Notes under the pieces: generated by a model | Told to the model about the DNA's origin: nothing | What the model saw: the letters and a program-made list of their open reading frames with translations, nothing else | Database searches by the model: none | Part shown: positions 1,532-40,589 of the stretch, piece by piece | Layout of the letters: each line of letters begins with the position of its first letter | Position numbering within the stretch: the first letter of the stretch is position 1 | UHGV virus genome: UHGV-1474357 | Length of the DNA stretch: 40,754 bases | Origin: a virus | Reading direction: 5' to 3' (one strand) | Made by a program: the position numbers and the translations under genes

Positions 1532-2191
1532 CTATCCTTCCTGGACTTTGGTAAGCGTCAGATTTCCGCAGAACACTGCGCCGGTGTCGATGTACATTTG
1601 GTTTGCATACACCAGTGGGTGATGTGCTGGCGTATGACCGAAGATGAACAAATCGGCACCGGTTATCTCCGAGACAATACCGTCCTGCGCGTCGCTAACC
1701 CGCTCACGATTCCATATCACCATTTCTTCCGGTACTGGCTTATCGAATGCGTATTCGTTGTGCGGGTAGTCTGCGTGGCAGATGACGACCTTCTTATTGC
1801 CGGTAACCAGTTCGATAATCATCGGGAGGTTGGTAACCTTTGGCAGAAGGTATTTGAGTTGCACATCCTGCTCAGAATCAAGTTGGTGCCACCATCCACC
1901 GCCGTTTGACATCCAATGTCCGAAACTTCCGCCGTTGACCAGTGCATCCAGCATCATCTGCTCATGGTTGCCACGAACAGCTCGGAACCACGGCATAGTA
2001 ATCAAATCCAGGCATTCGACGTTTTCAGCGCCGCGGTCAACAAGGTCACCAACGGAAATAAGCAAATCGCGCGCCGGGTCGAATGAAACTTTGTCGAGTT
2101 CGTTCATCAGCAGCGTGTAGCACCCATGCAGATCGCCGACGACGAAGATATTGCACCAGTCAGCGCCATTGATGCGTTGATATAGGTTCAT
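1532..2191 (-). CDS. Ser/Thr protein phosphatase (calcineurin-like metallophosphoesterase, lambda PP-like)
   Basis: Motifs [20 protein letters not shown]. Start set at internal ATG (MNLYQRING...) because ATG 2191-2189 overlaps the upstream TGA 2190-2188 (ATGA coupling). Confidence 0.85.
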
Positions 2192-2838
2192 GCTGCACGC
2201 TCCCGCCCCTGGTTGTCTGTTGGTGACAGCGGAGCATTGCTGAATGCATTTGTTAATCCGCCGATATCCAACGCGTATCCAGGGTGTAGTTGCACTGCCG
2301 GGTCTTCGCACTGATTACCCCAAACATCGAAGCCATGAGACGTCTGGCGGGCGAACAGTTCAATGCGAGAAACATCGCCTAATAATTGCACAAGTTTTTC
2401 ACGAACGATATCTGGCTTTCTTGAATGCTCAAGCCGCGGTGCGGTAAATGACTGAACGATCCCTGCATTAATGCGCGTAGGTAGTTTTCCCTTTACCGCA
2501 AACAGGCAATCTTCACTATTGGCGCGAGTCATGTGTCCCATACCCATAACCAGTTTATCTGGTTGTCGACTACCACATTTTATCCACGTGAAGCCCTTCA
2601 TCGTCATCAGACGGAATCCCCAGGCTTCAACAACTTTTAGTGCTTCGAGTGGTTGTGTTGGCACCCACCACATGGCCAACAGACAGTTTTCATCGGCCAA
2701 ATCCCACACAGGAAGGCGGCAGATATCCAGCACACTCATAACCGGATATTTAAAACCGGCACCGCGATTACCATCTGCGGCTTTGTCCCGGTATACCCAG
2801 GGTGGATCTGCATAGATTAGTGTGTATTTCTTAGTCAT
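2188..2838 (-). CDS. DNA N6-adenine methyltransferase, MT-A70 family
   Basis: Catalytic motif IYADPPW near N-terminus. ATG at 2838 chosen; an alternative GTG start at 2850 is possible. Confidence 0.8.
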
Positions 2839-3130
2839 AAACCACCCCACAACATCCTATGCCGCTATAGTCGCCACGGCGAAGGCCGTTACCTTTTGTG
2901 ATACATTGGTCCCTGCGAACCGCGATCCTTGCACGTTCAACATCACCAGAAGCAACATCCATACACTGAAGCCAAAGGTGAGCGGCAATGCGGAATTGCC
3001 CTTTTTTCTCTCTTTCAATCGCGCGTTTTTCGATCTCTATCGCCGCAGGAGTAACGGCGACAATCTTTGACGGACTGCGCATTGAAACCTTATTCATGTG
3101 ATATTTTTCAAGTCGGCTTAACTTTCTCAC
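2831..3130 (-). CDS. Hypothetical protein (99 aa, GTG start; alternative ATG at 3097)
   Basis: ORF co-oriented with the leftward operon; AGAGGG about 9 nt upstream of GTG 3130; no recognisable domain. Confidence 0.4.
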   Translation of the reverse strand: MRKLSRLEKYHMNKVSMRSPSKIVAVTPAAIEIEKRAIEREKKGQFRIAAHLWLQCMDVASGDVERARIAVRRDQCITKGNGLRRGDYSGIGCCGVVYD

Positions 3131-3239
3131 TTAATCCAACCCTCTCTGAAAATTAATGCCAGCAGATAAAGCCATGCTGAAACAGAGGCCAGGAATAAGT
3201 ACCATCCTGACCATTTGCTCCAGTGCCTTAGCAGCGCAC

Positions 3240-3488
3240 TCATGCAGCGTTGCTCACGGGACGATATACACGTTGCTGAACAGGAGGCTTTTTACCCTGG
3301 AACTCTGCCGGGCTTGCTGCCTGACGTTCATCAAGCCAACGCTCAACTTCATCACGGTTCCATGCGCAGCGTTTATCGGTGATATACCAGCGTTTAGGAA
3401 ATTCCCCTGCGCGCTCCATACGGTCGATAGTGCTCCATGACAGTGGCACCACCGCCAGGAGTTCTTTCTTACCTAATGCACCTTTCAT
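3240..3488 (-). CDS. AlpA-family DNA-binding protein, putative excisionase
   Basis: Sequence LLAVVPLSWSTIDRMERAGEFPKRWYITDKRCAWNRDEVERWL matches the AlpA/Xis winged-helix family; strong SD AGAGAGG before the ATG. Confidence 0.8.
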   Translation of the reverse strand: MKGALGKKELLAVVPLSWSTIDRMERAGEFPKRWYITDKRCAWNRDEVERWLDERQAASPAEFQGKKPPVQQRVYRPVSNAA

Positions 3489-3537
3489 GAATACCTCTCT
3501 TGGTTGCAGTGCGGCGCACGTGGCGCCGCGGTGGTGG

Positions 3538-4479
3538 TTACATAGATGTTTCGTTTAATTCTTCCCGACGAACGCTGTAAACGTCGGTTGCTTTTGCCAG
3601 CAGTTCGTCATCATCTGAAAGTTTTTGTGCAATGTATTTGTAAGCCTTATCCAGTTCGGAGACAGTGCTGTAATTCATCGCTGCGCTGGTAAAGGCCATC
3701 AGCATTTCTTCTGGATCACGGCTGTCCGATTTACGCGTTTGCTCATCAGGCTTTTTCGCTGGTTTAGCGTTGATCAGACTGTTCATTCCCGCAGCAGTGG
3801 TCGTTTGCGGAGTAATGTCTCGCTCAACGCGCGGTGCCGTTTCCTGTAATTCGTCTGGGGTGTAGACGCCCATGATTACGTCAGGACAGTGCAGGCGAGA
3901 CCAGCGTTTTGTCGCAAGGTATGCGAGTTGTTGTTTCGGATCACTGGCCCAAAGTGTGGAGTTTCTTACCTGTGCTTGAGACAGCATTAACTCAAGCACT
4001 CGAGGTTGATCCTCGCCCTTCATGGTTGCCCATACGCGAACACCGCAGCCTTCTTCGTCTTTTAGAGTCCAGCCTGGTGCGATATATGGATTGCCGTTTT
4101 TGGATGTTTTCTCAACAAACTTACCGATCACGCGTTCCCACGGCCCGAACCACTCGTAGTTGATGCGATCTTTTGTTGGCGACATCGTTGAGATAACTGC
4201 GTTTACTAATTGGGCTTCATAACCTAGCGTGCCGTTCACAACATGGGTTTTCTGAGCCACGGCAAACGGGTTCATTCCCCACTGCGCAGCCTGCATTGCC
4301 ACGGCCATGCAATCAGCTGGTTTCCCGGCGAGGTGCGCCGGTACCGTTACGCGGCTTTGCGCCATTACCTCGGCGAATTTCATCAGTTGGTTCAAGCCGT
4401 CTGGGCTGAAAATAGTTGCAGCAGTTCCAGCGATTGCTGTGTCTACTGGTGCGTTGATGTTTGCGATGTCGTTGCTCAT
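3538..4479 (-). CDS. recT: RecT-family single-strand annealing protein
   Basis: 313-aa product with RecT-like core (MAVAMQAAQWGMNPF...GYEAQLVNAV). Start ATG 4479-4477 overlaps the upstream gene stop (ATGA). Confidence 0.8.
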   Translation of the reverse strand: MSNDIANINAPVDTAIAGTAATIFSPDGLNQLMKFAEVMAQSRVTVPAHLAGKPADCMAVAMQAAQWGMNPFAVAQKTHVVNGTLGYEAQLVNAVISTMSPTKDRINYEWFGPWERVIGKFVEKTSKNGNPYIAPGWTLKDEEGCGVRVWATMKGEDQPRVLELMLSQAQVRNSTLWASDPKQQLAYLATKRWSRLHCPDVIMGVYTPDELQETAPRVERDITPQTTTAAGMNSLINAKPAKKPDEQTRKSDSRDPEEMLMAFTSAAMNYSTVSELDKAYKYIAQKLSDDDELLAKATDVYSVRREELNETSM

Positions 4480-5901: not shown

Positions 5902-6486
5902 TTATTGTTTGTTTTTTTCGTTCTGGTTGATGACAAATTCAATGTAACTTTCGATCTTTGCTTTCTCGGTTTCGGGTAACAATGCGTAGCGCGAGCGATC
6001 ATAGTTGATGGTCGCAGGGTCGTGCGGGTGAATCAGTAATTCATAGCCGTGACGCCCGAATGCGGATGCAACATTCTCCAGGGTGGAAATGGAAACGCTG
6101 ACCTCATTGTTTAACAGGCGGCTGATTGTCACCTGGGCTACGCCGGATGCGCGGTGAAGTTTTCCCTGTGTTGAAAGGTCGCGGCTTTCGCTCATCCAGC
6201 GTTCCAGGTTGTGAGCCGCCAGCTGGCCAATGTCGCTTGGGCCGACAGGCTGAAAACCTTCCTGAGAAAGCGAGCGATCGATATCAAGCCAGTTACGGGG
6301 TTTATTGGCGGCAGCTTCAATTTTTCGTGCAACCTGGTCGCCGATAACCTTCTTGCCAAGAGCCCAGCGGTTTACCAGATTTGCCTGAGTTCCAAGTTTT
6401 TCAGCCATCCGCGTCTGAACACCATTGAATTCACGGTCGATCAAGTCGTTGAGATTTTGCCTGCGGACGTCCTGGATACTTTTCAT
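5902..6486 (-). CDS. Prophage repressor (CI-like), two HTH-like segments, no S24 peptidase domain
   Basis: 194 aa; HTH-like segments (QTRMAEKLGTQANLVNRWALGKK and VAQVTISRLLNNEVSVSISTLENVASAFG); divergent from the Cro-like gene; no Ala-Gly/Ser-Lys LexA-like autocleavage module recognisable. Confidence 0.75.
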   Translation of the reverse strand: MKSIQDVRRQNLNDLIDREFNGVQTRMAEKLGTQANLVNRWALGKKVIGDQVARKIEAAANKPRNWLDIDRSLSQEGFQPVGPSDIGQLAAHNLERWMSESRDLSTQGKLHRASGVAQVTISRLLNNEVSVSISTLENVASAFGRHGYELLIHPHDPATINYDRSRYALLPETEKAKIESYIEFVINQNEKNKQ

Positions 6487-6541: not shown

Positions 6542-6556
6542 TTACCCAACAGGTAA
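6542..6556. promoter_or_regulatory. TTACC-N5-GGTAA dyad (TTACCCAACAGGTAA), candidate right operator 1
   Basis: Perfect dyad arms in the repressor/cro intergenic region. Confidence 0.5.
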
Positions 6557-9789: not shown

Positions 9790-10484
9790 GCGAAATTAAT
9801 TACCAGGCACTGCGTGAGGCGGCAGAGAAAGCAACGTGTGGCGAGTGGTCGCTCGAATATGGAGATGGCCGATTTGATGGTGATGATGCACTAATTCATC
9901 GTGAAGTTGCTGGATATATTCCCATTTGCAGAATTGAAGGAGCGCATCCAGAAAGCCGTTTCTATGAAGATTTCCAAATGGAGCAGCAGGCCAATGCTGA
10001 ATTCATCGCCGCAGCCAATCCAGCTACCGTGCTGGCACTGCTGGATGAACGGGAAAGAAACCTGCAATACATCAAAAGCCGCGATCAGGAGAACGAGGAT
10101 ATTGCGCTTACGGTTGGGAAGCTGAGAGTTGAGCTTGAGGAGACAAAATCAAAACTCAACGAGCAGCGTGAGTATTACGAAGGTGTTATCTCGGATGGGA
10201 GTAAGCGCATTGCTGAACTAGAGGAGCGGGAAATAAAACCAGCCAAAGGTGAAGTTCTGGTCGTTGTATCTGGTTTTACTGGTTGCGGAAAAAGCGCCAT
10301 TGCCGGGGAAATAGAAATCGCGATGAAGGCTATTGGTGTACCGGTTAAGTGGACTAATGGCGATGCAGAAAAGCGCATGACTGGCGCTGACTGGCTGACT
10401 GCGATTGAGATGTACAAACCAACTGTGCGCATCGTGGAAGTTAATGTGCCACGCGCCCCTGGCATTCGCATCAAAGGAGAGTGA
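9786..10484 (+). CDS. Ead/Ea22-like protein with coiled-coil centre and C-terminal Walker-A-like motif
   Basis: GTG start overlapping previous stop; N-terminal CGEWSLEY motif typical of Ea22-like proteins; C-terminal GFTGCGKS (GxxGxGKS). Confidence 0.6.
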   Translation: MSEINYQALREAAEKATCGEWSLEYGDGRFDGDDALIHREVAGYIPICRIEGAHPESRFYEDFQMEQQANAEFIAAANPATVLALLDERERNLQYIKSRDQENEDIALTVGKLRVELEETKSKLNEQREYYEGVISDGSKRIAELEEREIKPAKGEVLVVVSGFTGCGKSAIAGEIEIAMKAIGVPVKWTNGDAEKRMTGADWLTAIEMYKPTVRIVEVNVPRAPGIRIKGE

Positions 10485-10485
10485 G

Positions 10486-10677
10486 ATGAACGGACAAATC
10501 TCAATTGTTCGGCCGGGAGCATGTGACGATCGCGAGATACGAATGATTATTCGTCTGGCGATGGGGAAAACAATAACGGCTCTCATTACTCCAGAAAATC
10601 TCGCATTAGCATTAACCGGAAAGTCAGACCTGCCAGTAGAGCTAAAGCTGCGAAATGTTGAGATTAAGGTGAAATAG
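10486..10677 (+). CDS. Hypothetical small protein (63 aa)
   Basis: ATG 10486 two nt after previous stop with AAAGGAGAG SD. Confidence 0.5.
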   Translation: MNGQISIVRPGACDDREIRMIIRLAMGKTITALITPENLALALTGKSDLPVELKLRNVEIKVK

Positions 10678-31184: not shown

Positions 31185-32036
31185 ATGAAAAAAATAAATT
31201 TGTTTTTTGGCATAGTGCTTTCAATAGTCTCTGTAAATCCTACAGCTGCCAGTTCATTGCAATGCAATAAGGATAACTTTGATGCATGCAAAACGTGTGA
31301 ACAATTATCAAAGGCTATCGACTTAAAAGAACCTAATCGTGGCGATTACTATAGAGGGGCTTTATGGAATGGGCTTTACGCCTCTTATGTAATTAATTGC
31401 CCTGTGGTTGCTGAGAAGTTACTGAGCCATGGTGCTATACCATCATATGGCGGATATATGGGGTCTATGGGGGCGGTTCTGACAGGAAAATGGCCTCATA
31501 ACAATGAATCAATAAATCTTTCATGGGCAGATTTGCTTATAAAACATGGATTTGATGTTAATAGGCATACGGGGAATTATAAATCAGCTACTGAAGTATG
31601 GGCTATAGATAAAAAACAGATTGAATATAAGTCAGTTTTTGACAAGTTAATTCAATCCAGCGAAGTAAAACCACTCGATCCTTCAAGAAATTTAGAATGG
31701 TGTGCGTCTGAAGGGTATCGCTCAGTTGTCGTTTATTCCCTTAACTCATGTATAGAAAATGCTATAAAACGTTTGGATGATGGTGTTTCTTCAGCGTCTG
31801 ATATTTCATCAGCAGCCGTAAATTCCTGTACTAGCGATGTAGAAAATTTCAATAAGCATTTGGCATGCAAAGCAGCTGTTAAAGAAAACTCTGATAAAGA
31901 GAGAAGCGACGTTTACCAGTTATTAACCAGTGATAGTCAAATGAATAAAAATGTTATTGATATGCTGAAGGAAAGAAATATTGAAACGGTTCTTGAATTT
32001 AGAGCTGAAAATCGATCAGCGAAAACTGCACAGTGA
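31185..32036 (+). CDS. Secreted protein with ankyrin-like repeats (AT-rich cargo gene)
   Basis: N-terminal signal peptide (MKKINLFFGIVLSIVSVNPTAAS); repeat-like segments LLSHGAIPS and LLIKHGFDVNRHTGN; clearly lower GC than flanking virion genes; strong terminator follows. Confidence 0.55.
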   Translation: MKKINLFFGIVLSIVSVNPTAASSLQCNKDNFDACKTCEQLSKAIDLKEPNRGDYYRGALWNGLYASYVINCPVVAEKLLSHGAIPSYGGYMGSMGAVLTGKWPHNNESINLSWADLLIKHGFDVNRHTGNYKSATEVWAIDKKQIEYKSVFDKLIQSSEVKPLDPSRNLEWCASEGYRSVVVYSLNSCIENAIKRLDDGVSSASDISSAAVNSCTSDVENFNKHLACKAAVKENSDKERSDVYQLLTSDSQMNKNVIDMLKERNIETVLEFRAENRSAKTAQ

Positions 32037-32057
32037 TCAAACAGGCCGCTTTCGCGG
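32033..32057 (+). terminator. Intrinsic terminator after secreted ankyrin-like gene
   Basis: AGGCCGC-TTTC-GCGGCCT followed by TGTTTTT. Confidence 0.7.
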
Positions 32058-32065
32058 CCTTGTTT

Positions 32066-32227
32066 TTAACGAATGCCACCGCCACCCGGGCGGGAATCCG
32101 CAGAACGCCCACCGCAGCGGGAGCCGTCAGCAGCAGTGTCGCTGTCGTGCTGACAACGACCGGCAAAGGCCTGAGTTGAAGCTACCAGAGACAACAAAAC
32201 GAACAGTGCAGCAAATGCTTTTTTCAT
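32066..32227 (-). CDS. Putative small secreted protein (53 aa)
   Basis: Internal ATG gives MKKAFAALFVLLSLVASTQAFA signal-peptide-like N-terminus; -35/-10-like TTGACG / TATAGA upstream; weak SD, so low confidence. Confidence 0.3.
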   Translation of the reverse strand: MKKAFAALFVLLSLVASTQAFAGRCQHDSDTAADGSRCGGRSADSRPGGGGIR

Positions 32228-32300
32228 TGTGAAATTTCCATCTATAAGCCACCTCAATGTGGCGTCAATGAGTGTAGCACTGACTTTTGTTTCGTCCATA

Positions 32301-32323
32301 AAAAAGCCCTCAGTGCGGGCTTA
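32301..32323 (-). terminator. Intrinsic terminator after the two-gene cassette
   Basis: Minus-strand hairpin AAGCCCGCACTGAGGGCTT followed by TTTTT. Confidence 0.5.
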
Positions 32324-32698
32324 ATTAACTTCGAGGATAATAGAATCTTTAGACTTGAATCCCACTTTCCTCATGGCTGTAATGACGTTTTGGATAACCC
32401 ACGTTTTCCCAAACTCTCTTTCGTGTACAATGGCGCAAGGAAAATGAAGGGCGCTTTTGTTGCACTTTATGGTGAAAGTTGTACCTTCAGCAAAATCCAA
32501 AACAGTCTGCAGATGTGCAGATATAAACGATTTAAACACATCTTCAAGCTCAGCAAGAGTAATTGGCGGTTTGTTCCTCTCGTCGTTCAGGCGTTCATAT
32601 GCTGCGTGAAATGAAAAGTGAATTCTTGCCGCATCTTCTTGCAAGATCTCGTTAATCTCATCCTCAAGATCAATGAGTTGTTGTTCTGTTATAGACAT
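32321..32698 (-). CDS. Hypothetical protein (125 aa), second gene of overlapping two-gene cassette
   Basis: ATG 32698 overlaps the upstream gene end by 10 nt; acidic helical N-terminus; AT-rich. Confidence 0.55.
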   Translation of the reverse strand: MSITEQQLIDLEDEINEILQEDAARIHFSFHAAYERLNDERNKPPITLAELEDVFKSFISAHLQTVLDFAEGTTFTIKCNKSALHFPCAIVHEREFGKTWVIQNVITAMRKVGFKSKDSIILEVN

Positions 32699-32907
32699 AG
32701 ATAACGGGAGGTCGCCTCACTTATTTTTTGATTTAATTCATCATCATTGGATGCACGTACAGTAGCAACATGCTTACTTTGGCGTAGGGTCCCAATTCTG
32801 ATATCAAATTCTTCATTATCGAAAGAGTCAACGAAAACAGCTTTACCAGTTTCTGGATGGTAAAAAGAGGCATAGTTTTGGTTGAGTTGCATATCAAATT
32901 TAAACAT
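32689..32907 (-). CDS. Hypothetical protein (72 aa), first gene of overlapping two-gene cassette
   Basis: Strong SD GGGAGGA before ATG 32907; dyad operator about 118 bp upstream. Confidence 0.55.
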   Translation of the reverse strand: MFKFDMQLNQNYASFYHPETGKAVFVDSFDNEEFDIRIGTLRQSKHVATVRASNDDELNQKISEATSRYLCL

Positions 32908-33024
32908 ATCATCCTCCCATACGGGAACAGACGTGACTTACATACGGTGTGATTTTGACTAGTTAACTTTCTGCAGCAAAACCATCACGGTAACTACAAA
33001 CTAAAATGTTACAAATCAACTTTC

Positions 33025-33039
33025 TTACCTTTGGGGTAA
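33025..33039. promoter_or_regulatory. TTACC-N5-GGTAA dyad (TTACCTTTGGGGTAA)
   Basis: Perfect arms; on the minus strand it sits 5 nt upstream of a TTGATT -35-like hexamer ahead of the two-gene cassette. Confidence 0.45.
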
Positions 33040-33065
33040 TAGTACGCTATTCACCTGCAATCTGT

Positions 33066-33090
33066 ACAGAATTATTTAAAGGCACATCCC
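33066..33090 (-). terminator. Hairpin after antirepressor-like gene
   Basis: Minus-strand GGCACAGGGATGTGCC followed by TTTAAATAATT. Confidence 0.4.
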
Positions 33091-33105
33091 TGTGCCGCCG
33101 TTCTG

Positions 33106-33762
33106 TCAGAAGACCCCTGCCTTGTCGTTGATGTATTCCGCGTGGGTCTGGATATCACGCAGGCATTTACTCACACCGACGATGTAGCAGAACATGGTAG
33201 TCAGCTCCGCCGCCGCGCCCGATACGTCGTGCCCGTCGTCCTGTAACTGGTTCAGCAGATTCATCAGCAGTGAGTTCTCCGTCAGGCCGAGAACACCAGA
33301 TGGGGAATGAATCAGGCTGCGGTAGCCGGGCTTCAGTGGGGCGCTGTATTCTTTTTTGTCTTCCAGCTTGATCGCCTCCATAATGGCGGGCATGAAGCCT
33401 GACAAGACCTTCTCCACTTTTGTTTCTTGTTGTCTTAAACGTTTCTCGCATTCAATGAAGTAGCGTCGCACCTGGCGACCTTTTTCGTTACGCTCGACCA
33501 TCGCCAGCTCTTTGGCTGTATCAAGGGTGAGGTGGTACTCTTTGCGGTTGTGGCCGCCTCTACCAGATGTTTGCTTTCCCAAATTGGAAAGCAAAATATA
33601 GTCTTGATTTTCAATGAATTCGTATTCTGATATGCGATTTGTAATCCATGCTGCAAACACCTTTTTAACACCTAAAAAAGCGTGCAGATCGCGGGCATTA
33701 CAAAGTAGGGCTGTTTCGTTAGATATAGTGCCGTTGAATACGGGGATGAGTTGAGCGTTCAT
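33106..33762 (-). CDS. Antirepressor-like protein (Bro-N/AntA-like N-terminal domain, Ant C-terminal domain)
   Basis: 218 aa; N-terminus [27 protein letters not shown] and central [26 protein letters not shown] resemble phage antirepressor families; GGAG SD; C-terminal 70 aa homologous to the small gene at 34913-35170. Confidence 0.7.
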
Positions 33763-33920
33763 GATGGCGTCTCCACTTAGCGAATTACATCACCACCGCT
33801 GAGACCAATCAGATGGTGGTGAACTGAACGGAGTTGGTCTTACCGGCCTAAGTGGTACCGGCGTCCTTTCGGACCCCCATTCAGCCCACCATAATTCTGG
33901 CATGACTGTGCTATACGCAT

Positions 33921-34030
33921 AAAAAAACCACGTCTGGCGTGGTATGCGCCACTTAGTAATCCGGGAGACCAATCCCGGCACTGGATTTTGCCAGTGCCCG
34001 ATTACTATGGCACAAGAGGAGTGCAATGTA
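33921..34030 (-). ncRNA. Candidate structured leader / small RNA with intrinsic terminator upstream of antirepressor gene
   Basis: Minus-strand hairpins GGCACTGG-CAAAAT-CCAGTGCC and CCGGGA-TTGGTC-TCCCGG, then terminator ACCACGCC-AGA-CGTGGT plus TTTTTTT (33921-33943); promoter-like TTGATT / TTATCA hexamers at about 34081-34049 and a dyad operator at 34034-34048; no credible ORF. Confidence 0.3.
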
Positions 34031-34033
34031 AAT

Positions 34034-34048
34034 TTACCGCAAAGGTAA
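34034..34048. promoter_or_regulatory. TTACC-N5-GGTAA dyad (TTACCGCAAAGGTAA)
   Basis: Perfect arms; directly abuts the -10-like hexamer of the putative leftward ant promoter. Confidence 0.45.
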
Positions 34049-34126
34049 TGATAAACGCGAAGAAATATTAAAATCAACCGTATTTGGTTGATTGCGTTTA
34101 ACGCTTGATCACCTGAAAGCAAGATA

Positions 34127-34141
34127 TTACCTTTAAGGTAA
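34127..34141. promoter_or_regulatory. TTACC-N5-GGTAA dyad (TTACCTTTAAGGTAA)
   Basis: Perfect arms; 20 nt upstream of ATG 34162. Confidence 0.45.
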
Positions 34142-34161
34142 TGTTATTGTGAGGAAAAGCA

Positions 34162-34890
34162 ATGGAAGTTTTCTGGATAGTTGTTGGTGTGGTTGCGGTG
34201 ATTATTTACGTTATCAACCAGAACAAGACTAAGATCTCTGATCGTACGGTCGTTAATCATAACAAAACGATAAAGACCGAAGATGGGGAGATAACGATTA
34301 ATCGTACACAGGTGATAGAACACACCTCTACTCAGTTTCAAAAAACTGGAGGTAATGCGCCTAATATTTCCGCACCTCCTGCTTATGATAGTGCGGTAAT
34401 CCAGACATATTATAAACAGCAGGAGTTAGCAAAAGAGAGGCAACTGATTCAGCCAAAGCCGTTTACAGCTGAGCTTCCACCTGGAGTGTCAACGCGTCCG
34501 GCATATCATGGAAGATTCCCTGGTGATGACATATCGTCTCAGTCATCTAAAAAAGCACCTCAGGCAGTATCAGAGCCAGCAAGAATACCTTCTGTATCGC
34601 CGCCAAAAGAAGAATCAGCTAACAGAGTTTCAAGTGGTAGCAAGCAGTGCTTGCGATGCAGAATAAACCTACCATATGAAAAATTCAGGAAATCGTCAAA
34701 AAATCCAGATGGATTGACTAAGTGGTGTGCAAGGTGTCTCGATGGCCCAAAGAATACACGCCATATGAAGTGGTGCCCAATTTGTAATGTCCGCAGAAAA
34801 CGAACAAGCTTTTACCCTAATAATCAAAATGCGGATGGCTTAATGGCATGGTGCAAAACGTGCTGGGACGAGCACAAAGCGAAACGATAG
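34162..34890 (+). CDS. Membrane-anchored protein with repeated zinc-ribbon-like motifs
   Basis: N-terminal TM helix (VFWIVVGVVAVIIYVI); C-terminal repeats of C-x2-C...NPDGL..WC..C (CLRCRINLPYEKFRKSSKNPDGLTKWCARC; CPICNVRRKRTSFYPNNQNADGLMAWCKTC); AT-rich; bidirectional terminator follows. Confidence 0.6.
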   Translation: MEVFWIVVGVVAVIIYVINQNKTKISDRTVVNHNKTIKTEDGEITINRTQVIEHTSTQFQKTGGNAPNISAPPAYDSAVIQTYYKQQELAKERQLIQPKPFTAELPPGVSTRPAYHGRFPGDDISSQSSKKAPQAVSEPARIPSVSPPKEESANRVSSGSKQCLRCRINLPYEKFRKSSKNPDGLTKWCARCLDGPKNTRHMKWCPICNVRRKRTSFYPNNQNADGLMAWCKTCWDEHKAKR

Positions 34891-34914
34891 GCCGCTCTTG
34901 CGGCCTTTAAATTT
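34890..34914. terminator. Bidirectional intrinsic terminator between convergent genes
   Basis: GGCCGC-TCTT-GCGGCC flanked by A/T runs; stem nearly identical to the terminator at 32033-32057. Confidence 0.6.
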
Positions 34915-35170
34915 ACCGGGTTTGTTTTCGTAATTGTTCGGCACAATAGTCGAGATGTGTTTGCAGATCCTGCATAGACATCTGTGAGCTGGTGACGTAG
35001 TTAATCAGTGCAGTCAGTTCGGCAAGTGGGCCATCGACATTAAATCCATCCTTATCGAGATCCCGGAGTAATTTCATCAAGTGCGATCCCTCCACCAGTG
35101 ACCTGACGCCTCCCGGCGTGTGAATCCTTTCGGTAAATCCGTCTTCCAGTGGATAGTGATACTGCTGCAT
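34913..35170 (-). CDS. Small protein (85 aa) homologous to the antirepressor C-terminal domain; candidate SOS-controlled antirepressor
   Basis: About 40% identity by eye to residues about 150-218 of the 33106-33762 product (shared PL, IH.P.GV, LM.LL, DG..V.G, AELT, D.QTH..Y); GGAG SD; LexA box 19 bp upstream of the ATG. Confidence 0.6.
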   Translation of the reverse strand: MQQYHYPLEDGFTERIHTPGGVRSLVEGSHLMKLLRDLDKDGFNVDGPLAELTALINYVTSSQMSMQDLQTHLDYCAEQLRKQTR

Positions 35171-35188
35171 CTTATCTTCTCCATGCAA

Positions 35189-35210
35189 TAACTGTATGTT
35201 TATACAGTAA
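35189..35210. promoter_or_regulatory. LexA (SOS) box TAACTGTATGTTTATACAGTAA
   Basis: Matches CTGT-N8-ACAG with AT-rich spacer and TA flanks (consensus TACTGTATATATATACAGTA); contains TATAAA -10-like hexamer on the minus strand; positioned 19 bp upstream of ATG 35170. Confidence 0.6.
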
Positions 35211-35246
35211 CAAATAATTTGTTTGCTATCCAGCACGTTTTGCAAA

Positions 35247-35261
35247 TTACCCGAAAGGTAA
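35247..35261. promoter_or_regulatory. TTACC-N5-GGTAA dyad (TTACCCGAAAGGTAA)
   Basis: Perfect arms; between the LexA-boxed small gene and the tailspike gene. Confidence 0.45.
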
Positions 35262-35365
35262 TATCTATTGGTATTTACAGTCTTTTTATCCATATATGGT
35301 TTTTCAGGTAATAGAATAACCAGATATGCGGCGCAACGGGTGCTGCGACTATCTGGAGATTTAAC

Positions 35366-38300
35366 ATGACGGTCTCAACCGAAGTTGACCACAACGAATA
35401 CACCGGTAACGGCGTTACGACATCGTTTCCGTATACTTTTCGAATTTTCAGAAAATCAGACCTGGTTGTTCAGGTGTCTGACCTGAACGGGAACGTAACA
35501 GAATTGGTCCTGGATACCGGTTATACGGTAACTGGGGCGGGCACTTATAGTGGCGGTTCTGTGGTTCTTCCGTCTCCGCTTGCTACTGGATGGCGAATTA
35601 CGATAGATCGTGTGCTTGATGTAGTGCAGGACACAGACCTTCGCAATCAGGGAAAATTTTTCCCCGAAGTGCATGAAGATGCCTTTGACTACCTGACGAT
35701 GCTGATCCAGCAATGTTTTGGGTGGTTCAGACGTGCATTGATGAAACCATCTTTGCTTGCAAAATATTACGATGCAAAGCAAAACAAAATTTCTAACCTT
35801 GCAGATCCATCATTTGAGCAGGACGCTGTAAATAATCGCTCAATGCGTAATTATGTCGATGCTGCAATCGCCGGAGTTGTTGGTGGTTTTGGTTGGTTTA
35901 TTCAGTATGGTTCTGGGGCTGTGTACCGAACGTTCCAGGATAAAATGCGTGATGCTATTAGCCCCAAAGATTTTGGAGCTGTTGGTGATGGTATAAATGA
36001 CGATTCCACTGCAATAAGCGCGTGCCTTGAAGCCTCATCTCCAGGTTATAAAATTGACGGATTAGGGCTTACTTTTAAAGTATCAACTCTTCCGGATGTC
36101 AGTCGATTTAAAAATGCTCGTTTTTTATTTGAGAGAATACCGGGCCAGCCTCTTTTTTATGCTTCTGAAGATTTTATCCAGGGAGAGTTATTTAAAATTA
36201 CAGATACACCGTGGTACAACGCCTGGACGCAGGATAAAACGTTTGTATATGACAATGTCATCTATGCGCCTTTTATGGCTGGAGACCGCCATGGTGTAAA
36301 TAACCTCCATGTTGCATGGGTTCGCTCAGGAGATGACGGGAAGACCTGGACAACGCCGGAATGGCTTACAGATTTACATGAAAACTATCCCACAGTTAAC
36401 TATCACTGCATGAGTATGGGGGTTGTCAGAAATCGCCTTTTTGCTGTAATTGAGACGCGGACCGTGAGAGGAAATAAACTGCAGGTTGCAGAGTTGTGGG
36501 ATCGCCCAATGAGTCGCAGCCTTCGCGTTTATGGTGGTATAACGAAAGCAGCAAATCAGCAAGTCGCTTATATTCGCATTACTGATCACGGATTATTTGC
36601 TGGTGATTTTGTCAACTTCTCAAACTCTGGTGTTACAGGTGTTACCGGGAATATGACGGTGACTACTGTTATTGATAAAAATACCTTTACAGTTACGACG
36701 CAAAATACCCAGGATGTGGATCAGAATAACGAGGGTAGATACTGGAGTTTTGGCACATCATTTCACTCGTCACCATGGAGAAAAACCAGTCTTGGAACTA
36801 TTCCTTCTTTTGTTGACGGAAGCACTCCTGTTACTGAGATTCACAGTTTTGCGACGATTAGCGATAACAGTTTTGCTGTTGGCTACCATAATGGTGATAT
36901 TGGTCCACGCGAGCTTGGGATACTCTATTTCTCTGATGCTTTCGGTTCTCCTGGTAGCTTTGTTCGCAGACGCATACCTGTAGAATATGAGGCGAATGCA
37001 TCTGAGCCATGTGTAAAATATTATGATGGCATTCTGTATCTGACGACCAGGGGGACATTAAGTACTCAACCCGGTAGTTCATTGCACAGAAGCTCTGATT
37101 TAGGTACATCATGGAATTCTCTTCGCTTCCCAAATAATGTTCATCACTCAAACCTTCCTTTTGCCAAAGTTGGCGATGAGCTGATTATTTTTGGCAGTGA
37201 GCGCGCATTTGGTGAGTGGGAAGGAGGAGAACCTGATAACCGTTATGCAGGAAATTATCCAAGAACATTTATGACCAGAGTTAACGTCAATGAGTGGAGT
37301 CTGGATAATGTAGAGTGGGTTAATGTTACTGATCAGATTTATCAGGGCGGAATAGTTAACTCTGCGGTTGGTGTTGGTTCAGTTTGTATCAAAGACAACT
37401 GGCTGTACTACATTTTCGGTGGGGAAGACTTTCTAAACCCATGGAGCATAGGGGATAACAACAGAAAATATCCTTATGTTCACGATGGTCACCCGGCTGA
37501 TTTGTATTGTTTCAGGGTGAAAATTAAACAGGAAGAATTTGTTTCAAGGGATTTTGTCTACGGAGCCACTCCTAACAGAACGCTTCCTACTTTTATGTCG
37601 ACGTCAGGCGTGAGGACGGTTCCTGTACCCGTTGATTTCACAGATGATGTTGCCGTCCAGTCACTGACTGTCCATGCAGGTACATCAGGACAAGTTCGCG
37701 CGGAAGTCAAACTTGAGGGTAATTACGCCATTATTGCGAAGAAAGTACCGTCTGATGATGTTACCGCTCAGAGATTAATCGTTAGCGGCGGTGAAACAAC
37801 GTCTTCAGCAGATGGTGCAATGATAACGTTGCATGGTTCCGTAAGCAGTACTCCACGTCGCGCGGTATATAACGCACTCGAACATCTTTTTGAGAACGGA
37901 GATGTTAAACCTTATCTTGATAATGTAAATGCTCTTGGTGGTCCGGGAAACAGGTTCTCGACAGTTTATCTTGGCTCCAATCCTGTGGTTACCAGTGACG
38001 GAACATTAAAGACAGAGCCGGTCTCTCCTGACGAAGCATTGCTGGATGCCTGGGGTGACGTCAGGTATATCGCTTATAAATGGCTGAACGCTGTCGCTAT
38101 AAAGGGGGAAGAAGGGGCGAGGATACATCATGGTGTAATCGCGCAGCAACTTCGTGATGTTCTTATTTCTCACGGACTCATGGAAGAAGAAAGCACAACA
38201 TGCCGCTATGCCTTTCTTTGCTATGACGATTATCCCGCAGTATATGATGACGTCATTACTGGCCAAAGGGAAATGCCGCTGACTGATAATGAAGGGAGCA

Positions 38301-38485
38301 TCATTGTTGATGAGGATGATAATCCAGTGATGGTAATGGAAGACATCATTGAGCGCGTTGAAATAACGCCAGCAGGATCTAGATGGGGGGTCAGACCTGA
38401 TCTCTTATTCTATATCGAGGCGGCATGGCAGCGCAGAGAAATGGATAAGATAAAAGAGCGGATTCAGTCTCTGGAAGAACGTTAA
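35366..38485 (+). CDS. Tailspike/tail fibre: T7 gp17-like N-terminal adaptor, sialidase-fold domain with Asp-boxes, C-terminal intramolecular chaperone domain; endosialidase-like
   Basis: 1039 aa; N-terminal conserved particle-binding pattern (FPYTF...DLRNQGKFFPEVHEDAFDYL); Asp-box motifs SGDDGKTW and SSDLGTSW; C-terminal segment (GVIAQQLRDVLISHGLMEEESTTCRYAFLCYDDY...) typical of auto-cleaving chaperone domains; GGAG SD. Confidence 0.8.
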   Translation: MTVSTEVDHNEYTGNGVTTSFPYTFRIFRKSDLVVQVSDLNGNVTELVLDTGYTVTGAGTYSGGSVVLPSPLATGWRITIDRVLDVVQDTDLRNQGKFFPEVHEDAFDYLTMLIQQCFGWFRRALMKPSLLAKYYDAKQNKISNLADPSFEQDAVNNRSMRNYVDAAIAGVVGGFGWFIQYGSGAVYRTFQDKMRDAISPKDFGAVGDGINDDSTAISACLEASSPGYKIDGLGLTFKVSTLPDVSRFKNARFLFERIPGQPLFYASEDFIQGELFKITDTPWYNAWTQDKTFVYDNVIYAPFMAGDRHGVNNLHVAWVRSGDDGKTWTTPEWLTDLHENYPTVNYHCMSMGVVRNRLFAVIETRTVRGNKLQVAELWDRPMSRSLRVYGGITKAANQQVAYIRITDHGLFAGDFVNFSNSGVTGVTGNMTVTTVIDKNTFTVTTQNTQDVDQNNEGRYWSFGTSFHSSPWRKTSLGTIPSFVDGSTPVTEIHSFATISDNSFAVGYHNGDIGPRELGILYFSDAFGSPGSFVRRRIPVEYEANASEPCVKYYDGILYLTTRGTLSTQPGSSLHRSSDLGTSWNSLRFPNNVHHSNLPFAKVGDELIIFGSERAFGEWEGGEPDNRYAGNYPRTFMTRVNVNEWSLDNVEWVNVTDQIYQGGIVNSAVGVGSVCIKDNWLYYIFGGEDFLNPWSIGDNNRKYPYVHDGHPADLYCFRVKIKQEEFVSRDFVYGATPNRTLPTFMSTSGVRTVPVPVDFTDDVAVQSLTVHAGTSGQVRAEVKLEGNYAIIAKKVPSDDVTAQRLIVSGGETTSSADGAMITLHGSVSSTPRRAVYNALEHLFENGDVKPYLDNVNALGGPGNRFSTVYLGSNPVVTSDGTLKTEPVSPDEALLDAWGDVRYIAYKWLNAVAIKGEEGARIHHGVIAQQLRDVLISHGLMEEESTTCRYAFLCYDDYPAVYDDVITGQREMPLTDNEGSIIVDEDDNPVMVMEDIIERVEITPAGSRWGVRPDLLFYIEAAWQRREMDKIKERIQSLEER

Positions 38486-39196: not shown

Positions 39197-39491
39197 GTTT
39201 TTTTTGCTTATCACTAATGCAGTTATTTGCACTGGCATAGCAATTCGCGTTGTCACATTCCGGCGTAACGGCTCTCAACATCGAAGGTGGGGAGGATGGC
39301 TTGCTTATTTCCTGATTGTTGCTGCGGCCAGTATTCCTGTTCGAGTCGCCTATGCAATCTGGTTACGTACGCCAATGGCTGTGGATTTATCTGAGGTCAT
39401 TATCAACGCTGTCATGCTGGCTGCGGTTATTAAAACGCGCGGTAACGTCGTTCAAATTTTTAAAGTATCGAGGTCTAAACATGGAGATTAA
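39183..39491 (+). CDS. Putative holin (three predicted TM segments)
   Basis: 102 aa, three hydrophobic segments and charged C-terminus; overlaps previous gene by 14 nt and endolysin by 11 nt. Confidence 0.55.
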
Positions 39492-40110
39492 ACAATTCCA
39501 GCGAGCTGCTGGTATCAGCGAGGCACTGGCCGCACGCTGGTTCTCGCATATAACTTCTGCGATGAAAGAGTTTGGTATCAGCAAAGCAGAAGATCAGGCA
39601 ATGTTTATTGCTCAAGCCGGGCATGAGTCTGGGGGCTTCACCAGGTTGCAGGAGAATTTCAACTACAGTGTCAGCGGACTGGCTAACTTCGTTCGGGCTG
39701 GGCGTCTCACTCAGGGGCAGGCTAATGCACTGGGGCGCCGTGCTGGTGAACCACCATTGCCACTTGAGCGCCAGCGCGCAATCGCAAATCTGGTATACAG
39801 CAAACGCATGGGGAACAATGCCCCTGGTGATGGCTGGAATTACCGAGGGCGCGGACTTATCCAGATTACCGGTTTGAATAACTATCGTGATTGCGGAAAC
39901 GGTCTGAAGGTTGACCTGCTGGAGAGCCCTGAACTGCTGGCGCAGGACGAATATGCGGCTCGTAGCGCGGCGTGGTTCTTCGCCAGCAAAGGATGCATGA
40001 AGTATACCGGCGATATTGCACGTGTAACTCTGATTATCAATGGTGGCCGGAACGGCATCGACGACCGGCGAGCGCGGTACATCACTGCCAGTAAGGTGCT
40101 GGCGGTATGA
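39481..40110 (+). CDS. Endolysin, glycoside hydrolase family 19 (chitinase-like lysozyme)
   Basis: 209 aa from ATG 39481 (GAGGT SD); motifs [12 protein letters not shown] and [16 protein letters not shown] typical of GH19 phage endolysins. Confidence 0.8.
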
Positions 40111-40589
40111 TCTGGGCATTCGTAAAAGCATACTGGAAACAGTTTCTTATCGTGGCAGTGCTTGCTGTTCTGGTCATATCAGGAGTGGTTGCTTGGAATA
40201 TACACGGCAGTCGCCAGTACGATGCCGGGTATGCTCAGGCGGAAGAAGACCGCAAAGCCGAAGAAGACAAAGTTCGTCAGTACTACGAACAGGAGAAAGT
40301 GACCAATGAACGTGAAGCTCAGCAGAGGATCGACCAGGCGCGCAATGATGCTCTTGATGCTGCCGCTAGCGCTGGCCGGTTGCAGCAACAACTCTTTGCC
40401 ATCCGTGAGCAGCTCAGGCAGTATAACGCCATTGTCGGCGCTGGGTCGTCAGCCGCAGACACCGGAGTTTTGCTTGCCGACGTGCTCAGCAAATCTCTCG
40501 AGAGAAACAGACAACTGGCAGAGTATGCTGACCGGGCAGCCGAAGCCGGAAGAGTCTGCGAAAAACAGTACGACACTTTGACCAGATAG
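40107..40589 (+). CDS. Rz-like i-spanin
   Basis: 160 aa; N-terminal TM ([17 protein letters not shown]) followed by coiled-coil-like helical region; ATG overlaps endolysin stop; embedded lipoprotein ORF in +1 frame. Confidence 0.7.
40345..40581 (+). CDS. Rz1-like o-spanin lipoprotein, embedded in Rz in +1 frame
   Basis: [13 protein letters not shown] lipobox, Pro/Ser-rich mature region; entirely inside the Rz ORF. Confidence 0.55.
   Translation: MMLLMLPLALAGCSNNSLPSVSSSGSITPLSALGRQPQTPEFCLPTCSANLSRETDNWQSMLTGQPKPEESAKNSTTL

Follow-up and report, generated by a model that had tools for sequence, protein, structure and literature searches.

The virus genome UHGV-1474357, analysed here as one stretch of 40,754 nucleotides (the window), is that of an epsilon15-like temperate Escherichia coli phage of the genus Uetakevirus, a 40-kb integrating podophage, and it carries two antirepressor genes: a long ant encoding 218 amino acids (33106-33762, minus strand) and a short ant encoding 85 (34913-35170, minus strand). 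The phage probably possesses a single SPC32H-type repressor, Rep, together with these two antirepressors, which would have a common Rep-binding, tetramer-forming domain and would be released by different switches, namely a LexA (SOS) box in front of the short gene and a C4/isrK antisense-RNA cassette in front of the long one. This reading is built on homology, on the arrangement of the control elements and on published work with related phages.

The short and the long Ant are homologous. BLASTP aligns the short protein with residues 137-210 of the long one without gaps, giving 31 identities in 74 positions (42%) and an E value of 7e-20, in agreement with the initial annotation, which had put the identity of the 85-residue product with the C-terminal 70 or so residues of the long Ant at roughly 40%. 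The pairwise alignment against shuffled controls that it had called for yielded a Smith-Waterman score of 162, far above 2000 shuffles (27.3 +/- 4.5, maximum 61; z = 30). Furthermore, 28 positions are invariant or nearly so over both paralog families, and a tblastn search of the window found exactly two copies of the shared domain and no third.

Judged by its sequence, the short Ant belongs to the SPC32H Ant family by all features open to testing. It matches chain E of PDB entry 5D50 with an E value of 4e-47 (residues 2-84 on 3-85, 83 amino acids), belongs to PHROG 450, contains no AntA domain according to Pfam and is about 88% identical to SPC32H Ant (tblastn; range 86-88%), the annotated gene of which lies in the same place and orientation, divergent from the tailspike gene. 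It is the core ant of all Uetakeviruses, including the Salmonella members that are devoid of the long copy, and its family comprises 136 clusters at 90% identity, all from Enterobacteriaceae and mostly labelled hypothetical. The LexA box CTGTATGTTTATACAG (35192-35207) is located in the promoter, 22-37 nucleotides 5' of the ATG, where it shares bases with a -10-like TATAAA (35199-35204) recognised in the sequence. No other intergenic CTGT-N8-ACAG site of the window has an AT-rich spacer, and the box is aligned and conserved in SPC32H, phiV10 and TL-2011b. Upstream of the box, the dyad TTACCCGAAAGGTAA (35247-35261), a putative Rep operator with a counterpart in the equivalent place in SPC32H, stands one base 5' of a -35-like TTGCAA (35240-35245). 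Against the same three phages, the upstream region (covering the LexA box, the Shine-Dalgarno sequence GGAGAAGA and the dyad) has a mean column identity of 89%. Many gene callers report an upstream-extended version of 126 amino acids instead; this was rejected, since the extension would span the promoter and the LexA box and since the corresponding ATG, behind the conserved GGAGAAGA, is the start of SPC32H Ant, which makes the 85-residue start the right one. In most records the gene appears as "hypothetical" or as the 126-residue open reading frame (ORF), an annotation that needs to be amended.

The long Ant combines an AntA domain (residues 22-92, 33487-33699, minus strand; Pfam PF08346, 91.8 bits against a gathering threshold of 27) with an SPC32H-Ant-like C-terminal domain (residues 137-213, 33124-33354, minus strand; PDB 5D50_E, E value 8e-14), and matches PHROG 377, "anti-repressor Ant", over its full length, while its residues 135-216 match PHROG 450, the family of the short Ant. 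This full-length architecture is common, with 85-98% identical antA/AntB antirepressor proteins in thousands of E. coli assemblies. The N-terminal part is, however, exchangeable: in TL-2011b and ZX5, the protein at the same locus begins with a Bro-N module, followed by 80 C-terminal residues that differ from those of the window at two positions. When a profile of the C-terminal domain was searched against 1.84 billion representative proteins, only 62 matches were returned, mostly stand-alone proteins of 80-100 amino acids, and in the fusions among them the shared domain was always C-terminal, behind AntA, Bro-N, Phage_pRha or ORF6N. Since the N-terminal partners are swapped while the C-terminal domain stays, the latter represents the constant unit and the former an exchangeable module. 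The phiV10 copy carries a frameshift that truncates the C-terminal domain and, from its sequence, looks like a pseudogene. The initial annotation had suggested that the C-terminal domain is the functional repressor-binding unit; this can be retained as very probable, given that the stand-alone form is 88% identical to SPC32H Ant, which was crystallised bound to its repressor (PDB 5D50), and that the module is nearly constant in the relatives.

Control of the long gene is of a different kind. No CTGT-N8-ACAG LexA box occurs in 33763-34160, and this interval holds an RNA cassette behind a predicted sigma-70 promoter (TTTACA-17-TG-CATAGT, 34004-34032, minus strand), the -10 region of which is conserved in five cassettes. 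The predicted start (approximately 33997) coincides with the first base of an isrK-like element (33921-33997, minus strand; Rfam RF01394, 67.7 bits against a gathering score of 50), which contains the target segments a1 (33966-33972) and b1 (33949-33956) and ends in an intrinsic terminator (stem 33927-33943 plus a T run); the c4-a1b1 family (RF03163) also matches at 33958-34010, at 39.9 bits and thus under its gathering score. Next follows a C4-type antisense RNA (33812-33896, minus strand; Rfam RF01695, 61.2 bits against a gathering score of 45, full model), whose minimum-free-energy fold agrees with the family consensus and whose pairing segments are the a' linker AGACCAA (33834-33840) and the b' hairpin loop CCACUUAG (33848-33855). 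These are perfectly complementary, over 7 and 8 nucleotides, to UUGGUCU and CUAAGUGG at a1/b1 and again at a2 (33802-33808) and b2 (33773-33780) in the ant leader (33771-33808, minus strand), where the b2 copy of CUAAGUGG overlaps the Shine-Dalgarno GGAG (33771-33774), 8 nucleotides before the ATG at 33762. The long gene codes for an antirepressor of the AntA family, and its C4/isrK cassette has the RNA features of P1 immI but no icd. An ORF of 110 amino acids spanning the leader (33790-34122) was rejected as a gene, as the region is explained by two Rfam RNAs with covariation. A comparable case is found in ZX5, where the coding sequence 1779-1892, an "ash family protein", overlaps the C4 RNA (1821-1906); both this annotation and the 110-residue ORF of the window are probably non-coding regions read as protein, and the ZX5 annotation is corrected accordingly.

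The RNA anatomy of the cassette and its covariation are direct observations of the present analysis. Across five cassettes, four specificity combinations occur, in each of which the changes at a1, a' and a2 and at b1, b' and b2 compensate one another perfectly: TTGGTCT with CTAAGTGG in the window, TTGGCGT with CTAAAAGG in TL-2011b and ZX5, TTGAGAC with CTACAAAGG in Kp4865-1 and TTGGTCT with CTACAAAGG in ST512phi13.3. The initial annotation had described a LexA box and a dyad operator before the short copy, dyad operators and a structured RNA leader before the long one, and hence two different controls. All of this holds, the leader being composed of isrK and C4 RNAs and the contrast being one between a LexA box and an antisense-RNA cassette, with the sole revision that the distal dyad is reassigned to a neighbouring gene (see below).

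As a separate observation, hundreds of guaA-integrated Uetakevirus-like prophages carry a 216-residue AntA-type long Ant (approximately 86% identical) at their integrase-proximal end (for example, HEMP4 (L005) at 2870-3654 and L015-L018 at 9870-10651). There it is preceded by an RNA of the sRNA-Xcc1 family in place of C4/isrK, the loop of which, CUUUGAAG, is the complement of CTTCAAAG, a word found at the ant ribosome-binding site and in a further copy upstream, so that the C4/isrK logic recurs with another RNA family. The prophages with this form again encode a 194-residue Rep.

The candidate common target of both Ants in the window is Rep (194 amino acids, 5902-6486, minus strand), which matches chain A of PDB 5D50, the SPC32H repressor, over its full length (E value 4e-42); it is 100% identical in phiV10, ZX5 and other E. 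coli relatives, and 42% identical to SPC32H Rep. Its probable sites are the TTACC-N5-GGTAA dyads, of which the window has 15 against 0.68 expected (approximately 20-fold), nearly all intergenic, starting at 216, 5768, 5830, 6542, 6590, 6927, 8866, 8928, 12836, 12854, 16043, 33025, 34034, 34127 and 35247. The dyads at 6542 and 6590 lie within the rep-cro intergenic region, and of the 18 sites in the SPC32H genome (L014), three fall between rep and the cro-like gene and one precedes ant; with an N6 spacer, the pattern gave chance matches only and was discarded. Both ant promoters have the same geometry of dyad, one base and -35 hexamer (TTTACA in the cassette, TTGCAA for the short ant), the proximal dyad TTACCGCAAAGGTAA (34034-34048), another putative Rep operator, standing one base 5' of the cassette -35. 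The distal dyad TTACCTTTAAGGTAA (34127-34141) lies 20 nucleotides 5' of a divergent gene of 242 amino acids (34162-34890). Since relatives without that gene keep only the proximal dyad, the distal one (missing together with the gene in L007, L012 and phiV10) belongs with the 242-residue gene and not with the ant cassette. From its distribution, the dyad is probably a Rep and/or Cro operator of the whole genus. A common dyad despite 42% Rep identity would imply an operator specificity common to "different" repressors. In parallel, the short Ants of the window and SPC32H are 86-88% identical although the repressors are only 42% identical; either the short Ant sees a conserved Rep surface and is a generalist, or the ant-tailspike block recombines apart from the immunity region.

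The following sequence of events is proposed on this basis. In the lysogen, LexA bound to the box at 35192-35207 would hold the short ant off, and DNA damage would remove LexA and allow the short Ant to be made; the protein would then bind Rep and dismantle its tetramer, leading to prophage induction, as is reported for the SPC32H ortholog. In the second branch, the single promoter at 34004-34032 would transcribe, in order, the isrK-like decoy, the C4 RNA and the ant mRNA, with the terminator after the decoy stopping part of the transcripts. C4 would pair with a2/b2 in the lysogen and block ant translation, and this block might be escaped through an excess of decoy, through fresh transcripts early after infection or through an incoming cassette of different C4 specificity. 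The long Ant would then be made and would inactivate Rep through the shared domain. By analogy with P1 immI, the RNA circuit may operate mainly in the lysis/lysogeny decision and in superinfection immunity.

We infer binding of the long Ant to Rep from its homology to the short Ant and from the result obtained with ZX5, a phage with Rep and short Ant identical to those of the window, in which overexpression of ORF4 (the Bro-N form) decreased lysogens from 1e9 to 1e6, approximately 1000-fold (PMC9782041). Several points weigh against the proposal of one repressor with two antirepressors. The ZX5 assay employed an overexpressed glutathione S-transferase fusion of the whole protein, so that the activity is not tied to the C-terminal domain; that domain is only 36-42% identical between the long and the short Ant, and the specificities could differ. 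An AlphaFold2 model of the long Ant monomer (from a 39-sequence alignment) reached a predicted local distance difference test score of 43.5 and a predicted template-modelling score of 0.32, leaving the fold identity sequence-based only; the poor monomer model is probably due to the domain being an obligate tetramer. The dyads may act in repression or in activation, and through Rep or Cro. Lastly, icd is missing, with only 49 nucleotides and no ORF between the C4 end (33812) and the ant ATG (33762); for this reason, P1-like coupling cannot be assumed, and C4 covers the ant ribosome-binding site directly.

The strongest competing explanation, though a distinctly unlikely one, holds that the long Ant ignores the resident Rep and that its C-terminal domain is tuned to the repressors of other prophages, in a form of crosstalk or anti-immunity resembling P22 Ant or the action of Fels-1 FsoA on the Gifsy-2 repressor. 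Antirepressors that act in trans and leave their own phage alone have been documented (PMC3121763), and the short and long domains, at 36-42% identity, have remained distinct clades in phages of E. coli, Klebsiella and Salmonella, which suggests non-redundant targets; the island of the long ant also gathers other antirepressor modules in the relatives (P22_AR_N with Arc or sar). Nevertheless, ZX5 ORF4, with its near-identical C-terminal domain, cut the lysogeny of its own phage, whose Rep is the one found in the window, and the AntA-type copies elsewhere co-occur once more with a 194-residue Rep. Less probable still is the explanation that, in the long Ant, the shared domain only oligomerises, the activity (for example, DNA binding or action on another target) residing in the AntA, Bro-N, Rha or ORF6N module. 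All four of these partners are phage regulatory domain families and SPC32H Ant is itself described as a tetramer, so that the residues conserved between the paralogs could belong to the core or to the tetramer interface. The joining of one C-terminal domain to four unrelated N-terminal modules speaks against this, as do the pseudogene-like phiV10 copy, truncated inside that very domain, and the sole structurally studied case (PDB 5D50), in which the domain alone suffices as an antirepressor. There is next to no chance that the similarity is accidental or compositional, or that one of the ORFs is no gene, as this is already refuted by the E value of 7e-20 and z of 30, and both proteins form conserved families with a PDB match, their genes having Shine-Dalgarno and promoter context.

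A further idea extends the proposal of two antirepressors acting on one Rep. With a constant Rep-binding domain and fast-diversifying C4 specificities (at least four, with a and b sites reassorting), the cassette could serve as an anti-immunity weapon among phages of the same Rep; this is put forward tentatively and, on balance, seems unlikely. If true, an incoming phage with an ant mRNA unseen by the resident C4 would make long Ant, inactivate the identical Rep, grow lytically and induce its competitor, and RNA heteroimmunity in the style of P1/P7 would be placed atop protein homoimmunity in integrating podophages. Equally tentative is the notion that the long and the short Ant might co-assemble into mixed tetramers, the RNA switch thereby tuning the SOS threshold.

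As for the age of the paralogy, the Klebsiella Uetakeviruses Kp4865-1 and ST512-KPC3phi13.3 possess both a short Ant and a long Ant of the Bro-N type, together with a leader of isrK and C4. The Salmonella Uetakeviruses carry the short gene only. Across the E. coli, Klebsiella and Salmonella phages, identities amount to 58-86% between short Ants, 51% between the C-terminal domains of long Ants and 36-37% between short and long. Copies therefore group by type and not by phage, which indicates an old split, with the long form being a domain fusion that travels in a variable island. A recent in-situ duplication was rejected on this identity matrix and on the lack of a long copy in the Salmonella relatives. 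The local duplication of the C-terminal module, as envisaged in the initial annotation, thus has to be abandoned: the short gene is core to the genus, the paralogs group by type and the long gene resides in the variable island.

The DNA around both ant genes matches the E. coli phages TL-2011b, phiv142-3, ZX5 and phiV10, which are kin of the Salmonella Uetakevirus phages epsilon15 and SPC32H, and the long ant sits in a variable inserted island of the window phage. The island (31185-35365) extends between the last virion gene and the tailspike gene (35366-38485, a complete K1 endosialidase with an S74 chaperone domain) and gathers antirepressor modules. In close relatives, the same island holds a third system, composed of a P22_AR_N antirepressor and an Arc-like gene (L006 and L008-L010, 7771-9507; L001, 399-1412), and that of TL-2011b contains a sar RNA scoring over the Rfam gathering threshold; the window has instead a protein of 283 amino acids (31185-32036), the N-terminus of which resembles a signal peptide by eye. 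The 242-residue gene (34162-34890, plus strand) is an insertion separating the two ant modules, and some otherwise identical prophages lack it; in phiV10 and in close relatives of the window phage without it, the stop codon of the short ant is directly followed by the proximal dyad and the cassette promoter. Its product belongs to PHROG 6762, a family that assigns no function; the N-terminus is hydrophobic, and two zinc-ribbon-like repeats at the C-terminal end recall endonuclease VII/Lar/Stc1 motifs. Between this gene and the convergent short ant lies a GC-rich terminator-like hairpin (34889-34906).

Downstream of the long ant, behind the dyad at 33025-33039, are two small overlapping genes of 72 and 125 amino acids (32321-32907, minus strand; PHROGs 14630 and 14518). 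They are kept alongside the cassette in a Klebsiella phage (L019, 6634-7307) and had no match in Pfam, NCBIfam or PADLOC; NCBIfam and PADLOC likewise returned nothing for the genes neighbouring the ants or for either Ant. Elsewhere in the window, a tRNA gene lies within the phage (15647-15720, minus strand, 73.3 bits), and the ORF adjoining the integrase gene (1532-2311, minus strand) resembles a lambda-type Ser/Thr phosphatase by eye only. An antisense ORF of 218 amino acids (39475-40131) is spurious, being located inside the endolysin gene.

The short and the long ant are of known kinds, with close relatives annotated and one of them (ZX5 ORF4) tested, and the result is a useful synthesis and not a surprise. 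In the searchable literature, no report was found of a paralog of the same phage's crystallised-type SOS antirepressor at the C-terminal end of the long Ants in Uetakeviruses of E. coli and Klebsiella, of four different N-terminal modules joined to the shared domain or of several compensating RNA specificities of the cassette next to an invariant Rep; the placing of one shared domain under two controls seems not to have been reported. Two well-studied induction logics (a LexA-controlled small Ant and a P1-type, antisense-RNA-gated Ant) would meet on one repressor in one small phage, and homology suggests that both Ants act through the same protein domain. This offers a clean system for studying how a prophage combines SOS and non-SOS signals, and makes it convenient to ask which part of the modular "Ant/Bro/Rha" proteins holds repressor specificity. 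Moreover, extraintestinal pathogenic E. coli harbour prophages with a K1-specific endosialidase and this locus, the induction routes of which are therefore of some practical interest.

Among known systems, the nearest to the short branch is the Rep-Ant antirepression system of SPC32H, described by Kim and Ryu in 2013 (J Virol) and Kim et al. in 2016 (PNAS), with PDB structures 5D4Z and 5D50. The window phage shares with it a short Ant of the same length and approximately 88% identity, the locus beside the tailspike, the LexA box with the dyad and a Rep homolog, although that Rep is only 42% identical; SPC32H and epsilon15, unlike the window phage, are without the long copy and without the C4/isrK cassette. 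According to a published description, SPC32H Ant forms a tetramer to which two Rep dimers bind and which breaks up the tetramer of Rep (PMC9638917), and LexA-controlled Ant is cited as the induction route of several Salmonella prophages (PMC7380047).

The long branch resembles the immI region of P1 and P7 (c4 - icd - ant1/2), where C4 RNA is needed for silencing the secondary antirepressor Ant in P1 (PMC8198154). In both, a C4-family RNA is transcribed together with its targets, of which a1/b1 lie upstream and a2/b2 downstream, the latter over a ribosome-binding site; the payload is an antirepressor, and specificity variants with compensating changes occur, as between P1 and P7. The differences are that the window has no icd and has b2 on the ant Shine-Dalgarno sequence itself, that its phage is an integrating 40-kb podophage whereas P1 is a plasmid prophage, and that the cassette operator is a TTACC-N5-GGTAA dyad and not a C1 operator.

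Gifsy-1 offers the closest parallel to the two branches together. Its isrK-orf45(STnc1160)-anrP cassette drives induction, with IsrK in trans raising anrP translation 140-fold and AnrP inducing the prophage (PMC4825925); lysogens contain abundant IsrK and STnc1160 in every condition tested (PMC7067206), and Gifsy-1 also has a small LexA-controlled antirepressor, GfoA (PMC3121763). The window phage likewise combines an isrK-family element with its own terminator, followed by a small RNA (a processed one in Gifsy-1) and an antirepressor-like gene, and, elsewhere, a second, small LexA-controlled antirepressor, which gives two antirepressor routes. With GfoA and isrK-anrP, Gifsy-1 thus sets a precedent for one SOS-controlled and one isrK-controlled antirepressor per prophage. 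Nevertheless, the repressor and antirepressor protein families differ, Gifsy-1 AnrP works via antQ expression, and in the published Gifsy-1 model IsrK activates a long mRNA, as opposed to the decoy titrating a C4-like RNA that is proposed for the window phage.

The most direct comparison is with the ORF4 anti-repressor of ZX5 (vB_EcoP_ZX5), in the report of which neither the short Ant nor the RNA cassette was recognised (PMC9782041). Related annotations are the "putative anti-repressor" of TL-2011b and p23 of phiV10, an "anti-immunity protein". ZX5 and the window phage share genus, island, isrK plus C4 leader, Rep and short Ant, and their long proteins are nearly identical over the C-terminal 80 amino acids; they differ in the N-terminal module, which is Bro-N in ZX5 and AntA in the window, and in the C4 segments, which are ACGCCAA/CCUUUUAG in ZX5 and AGACCAA/CCACUUAG in the window.

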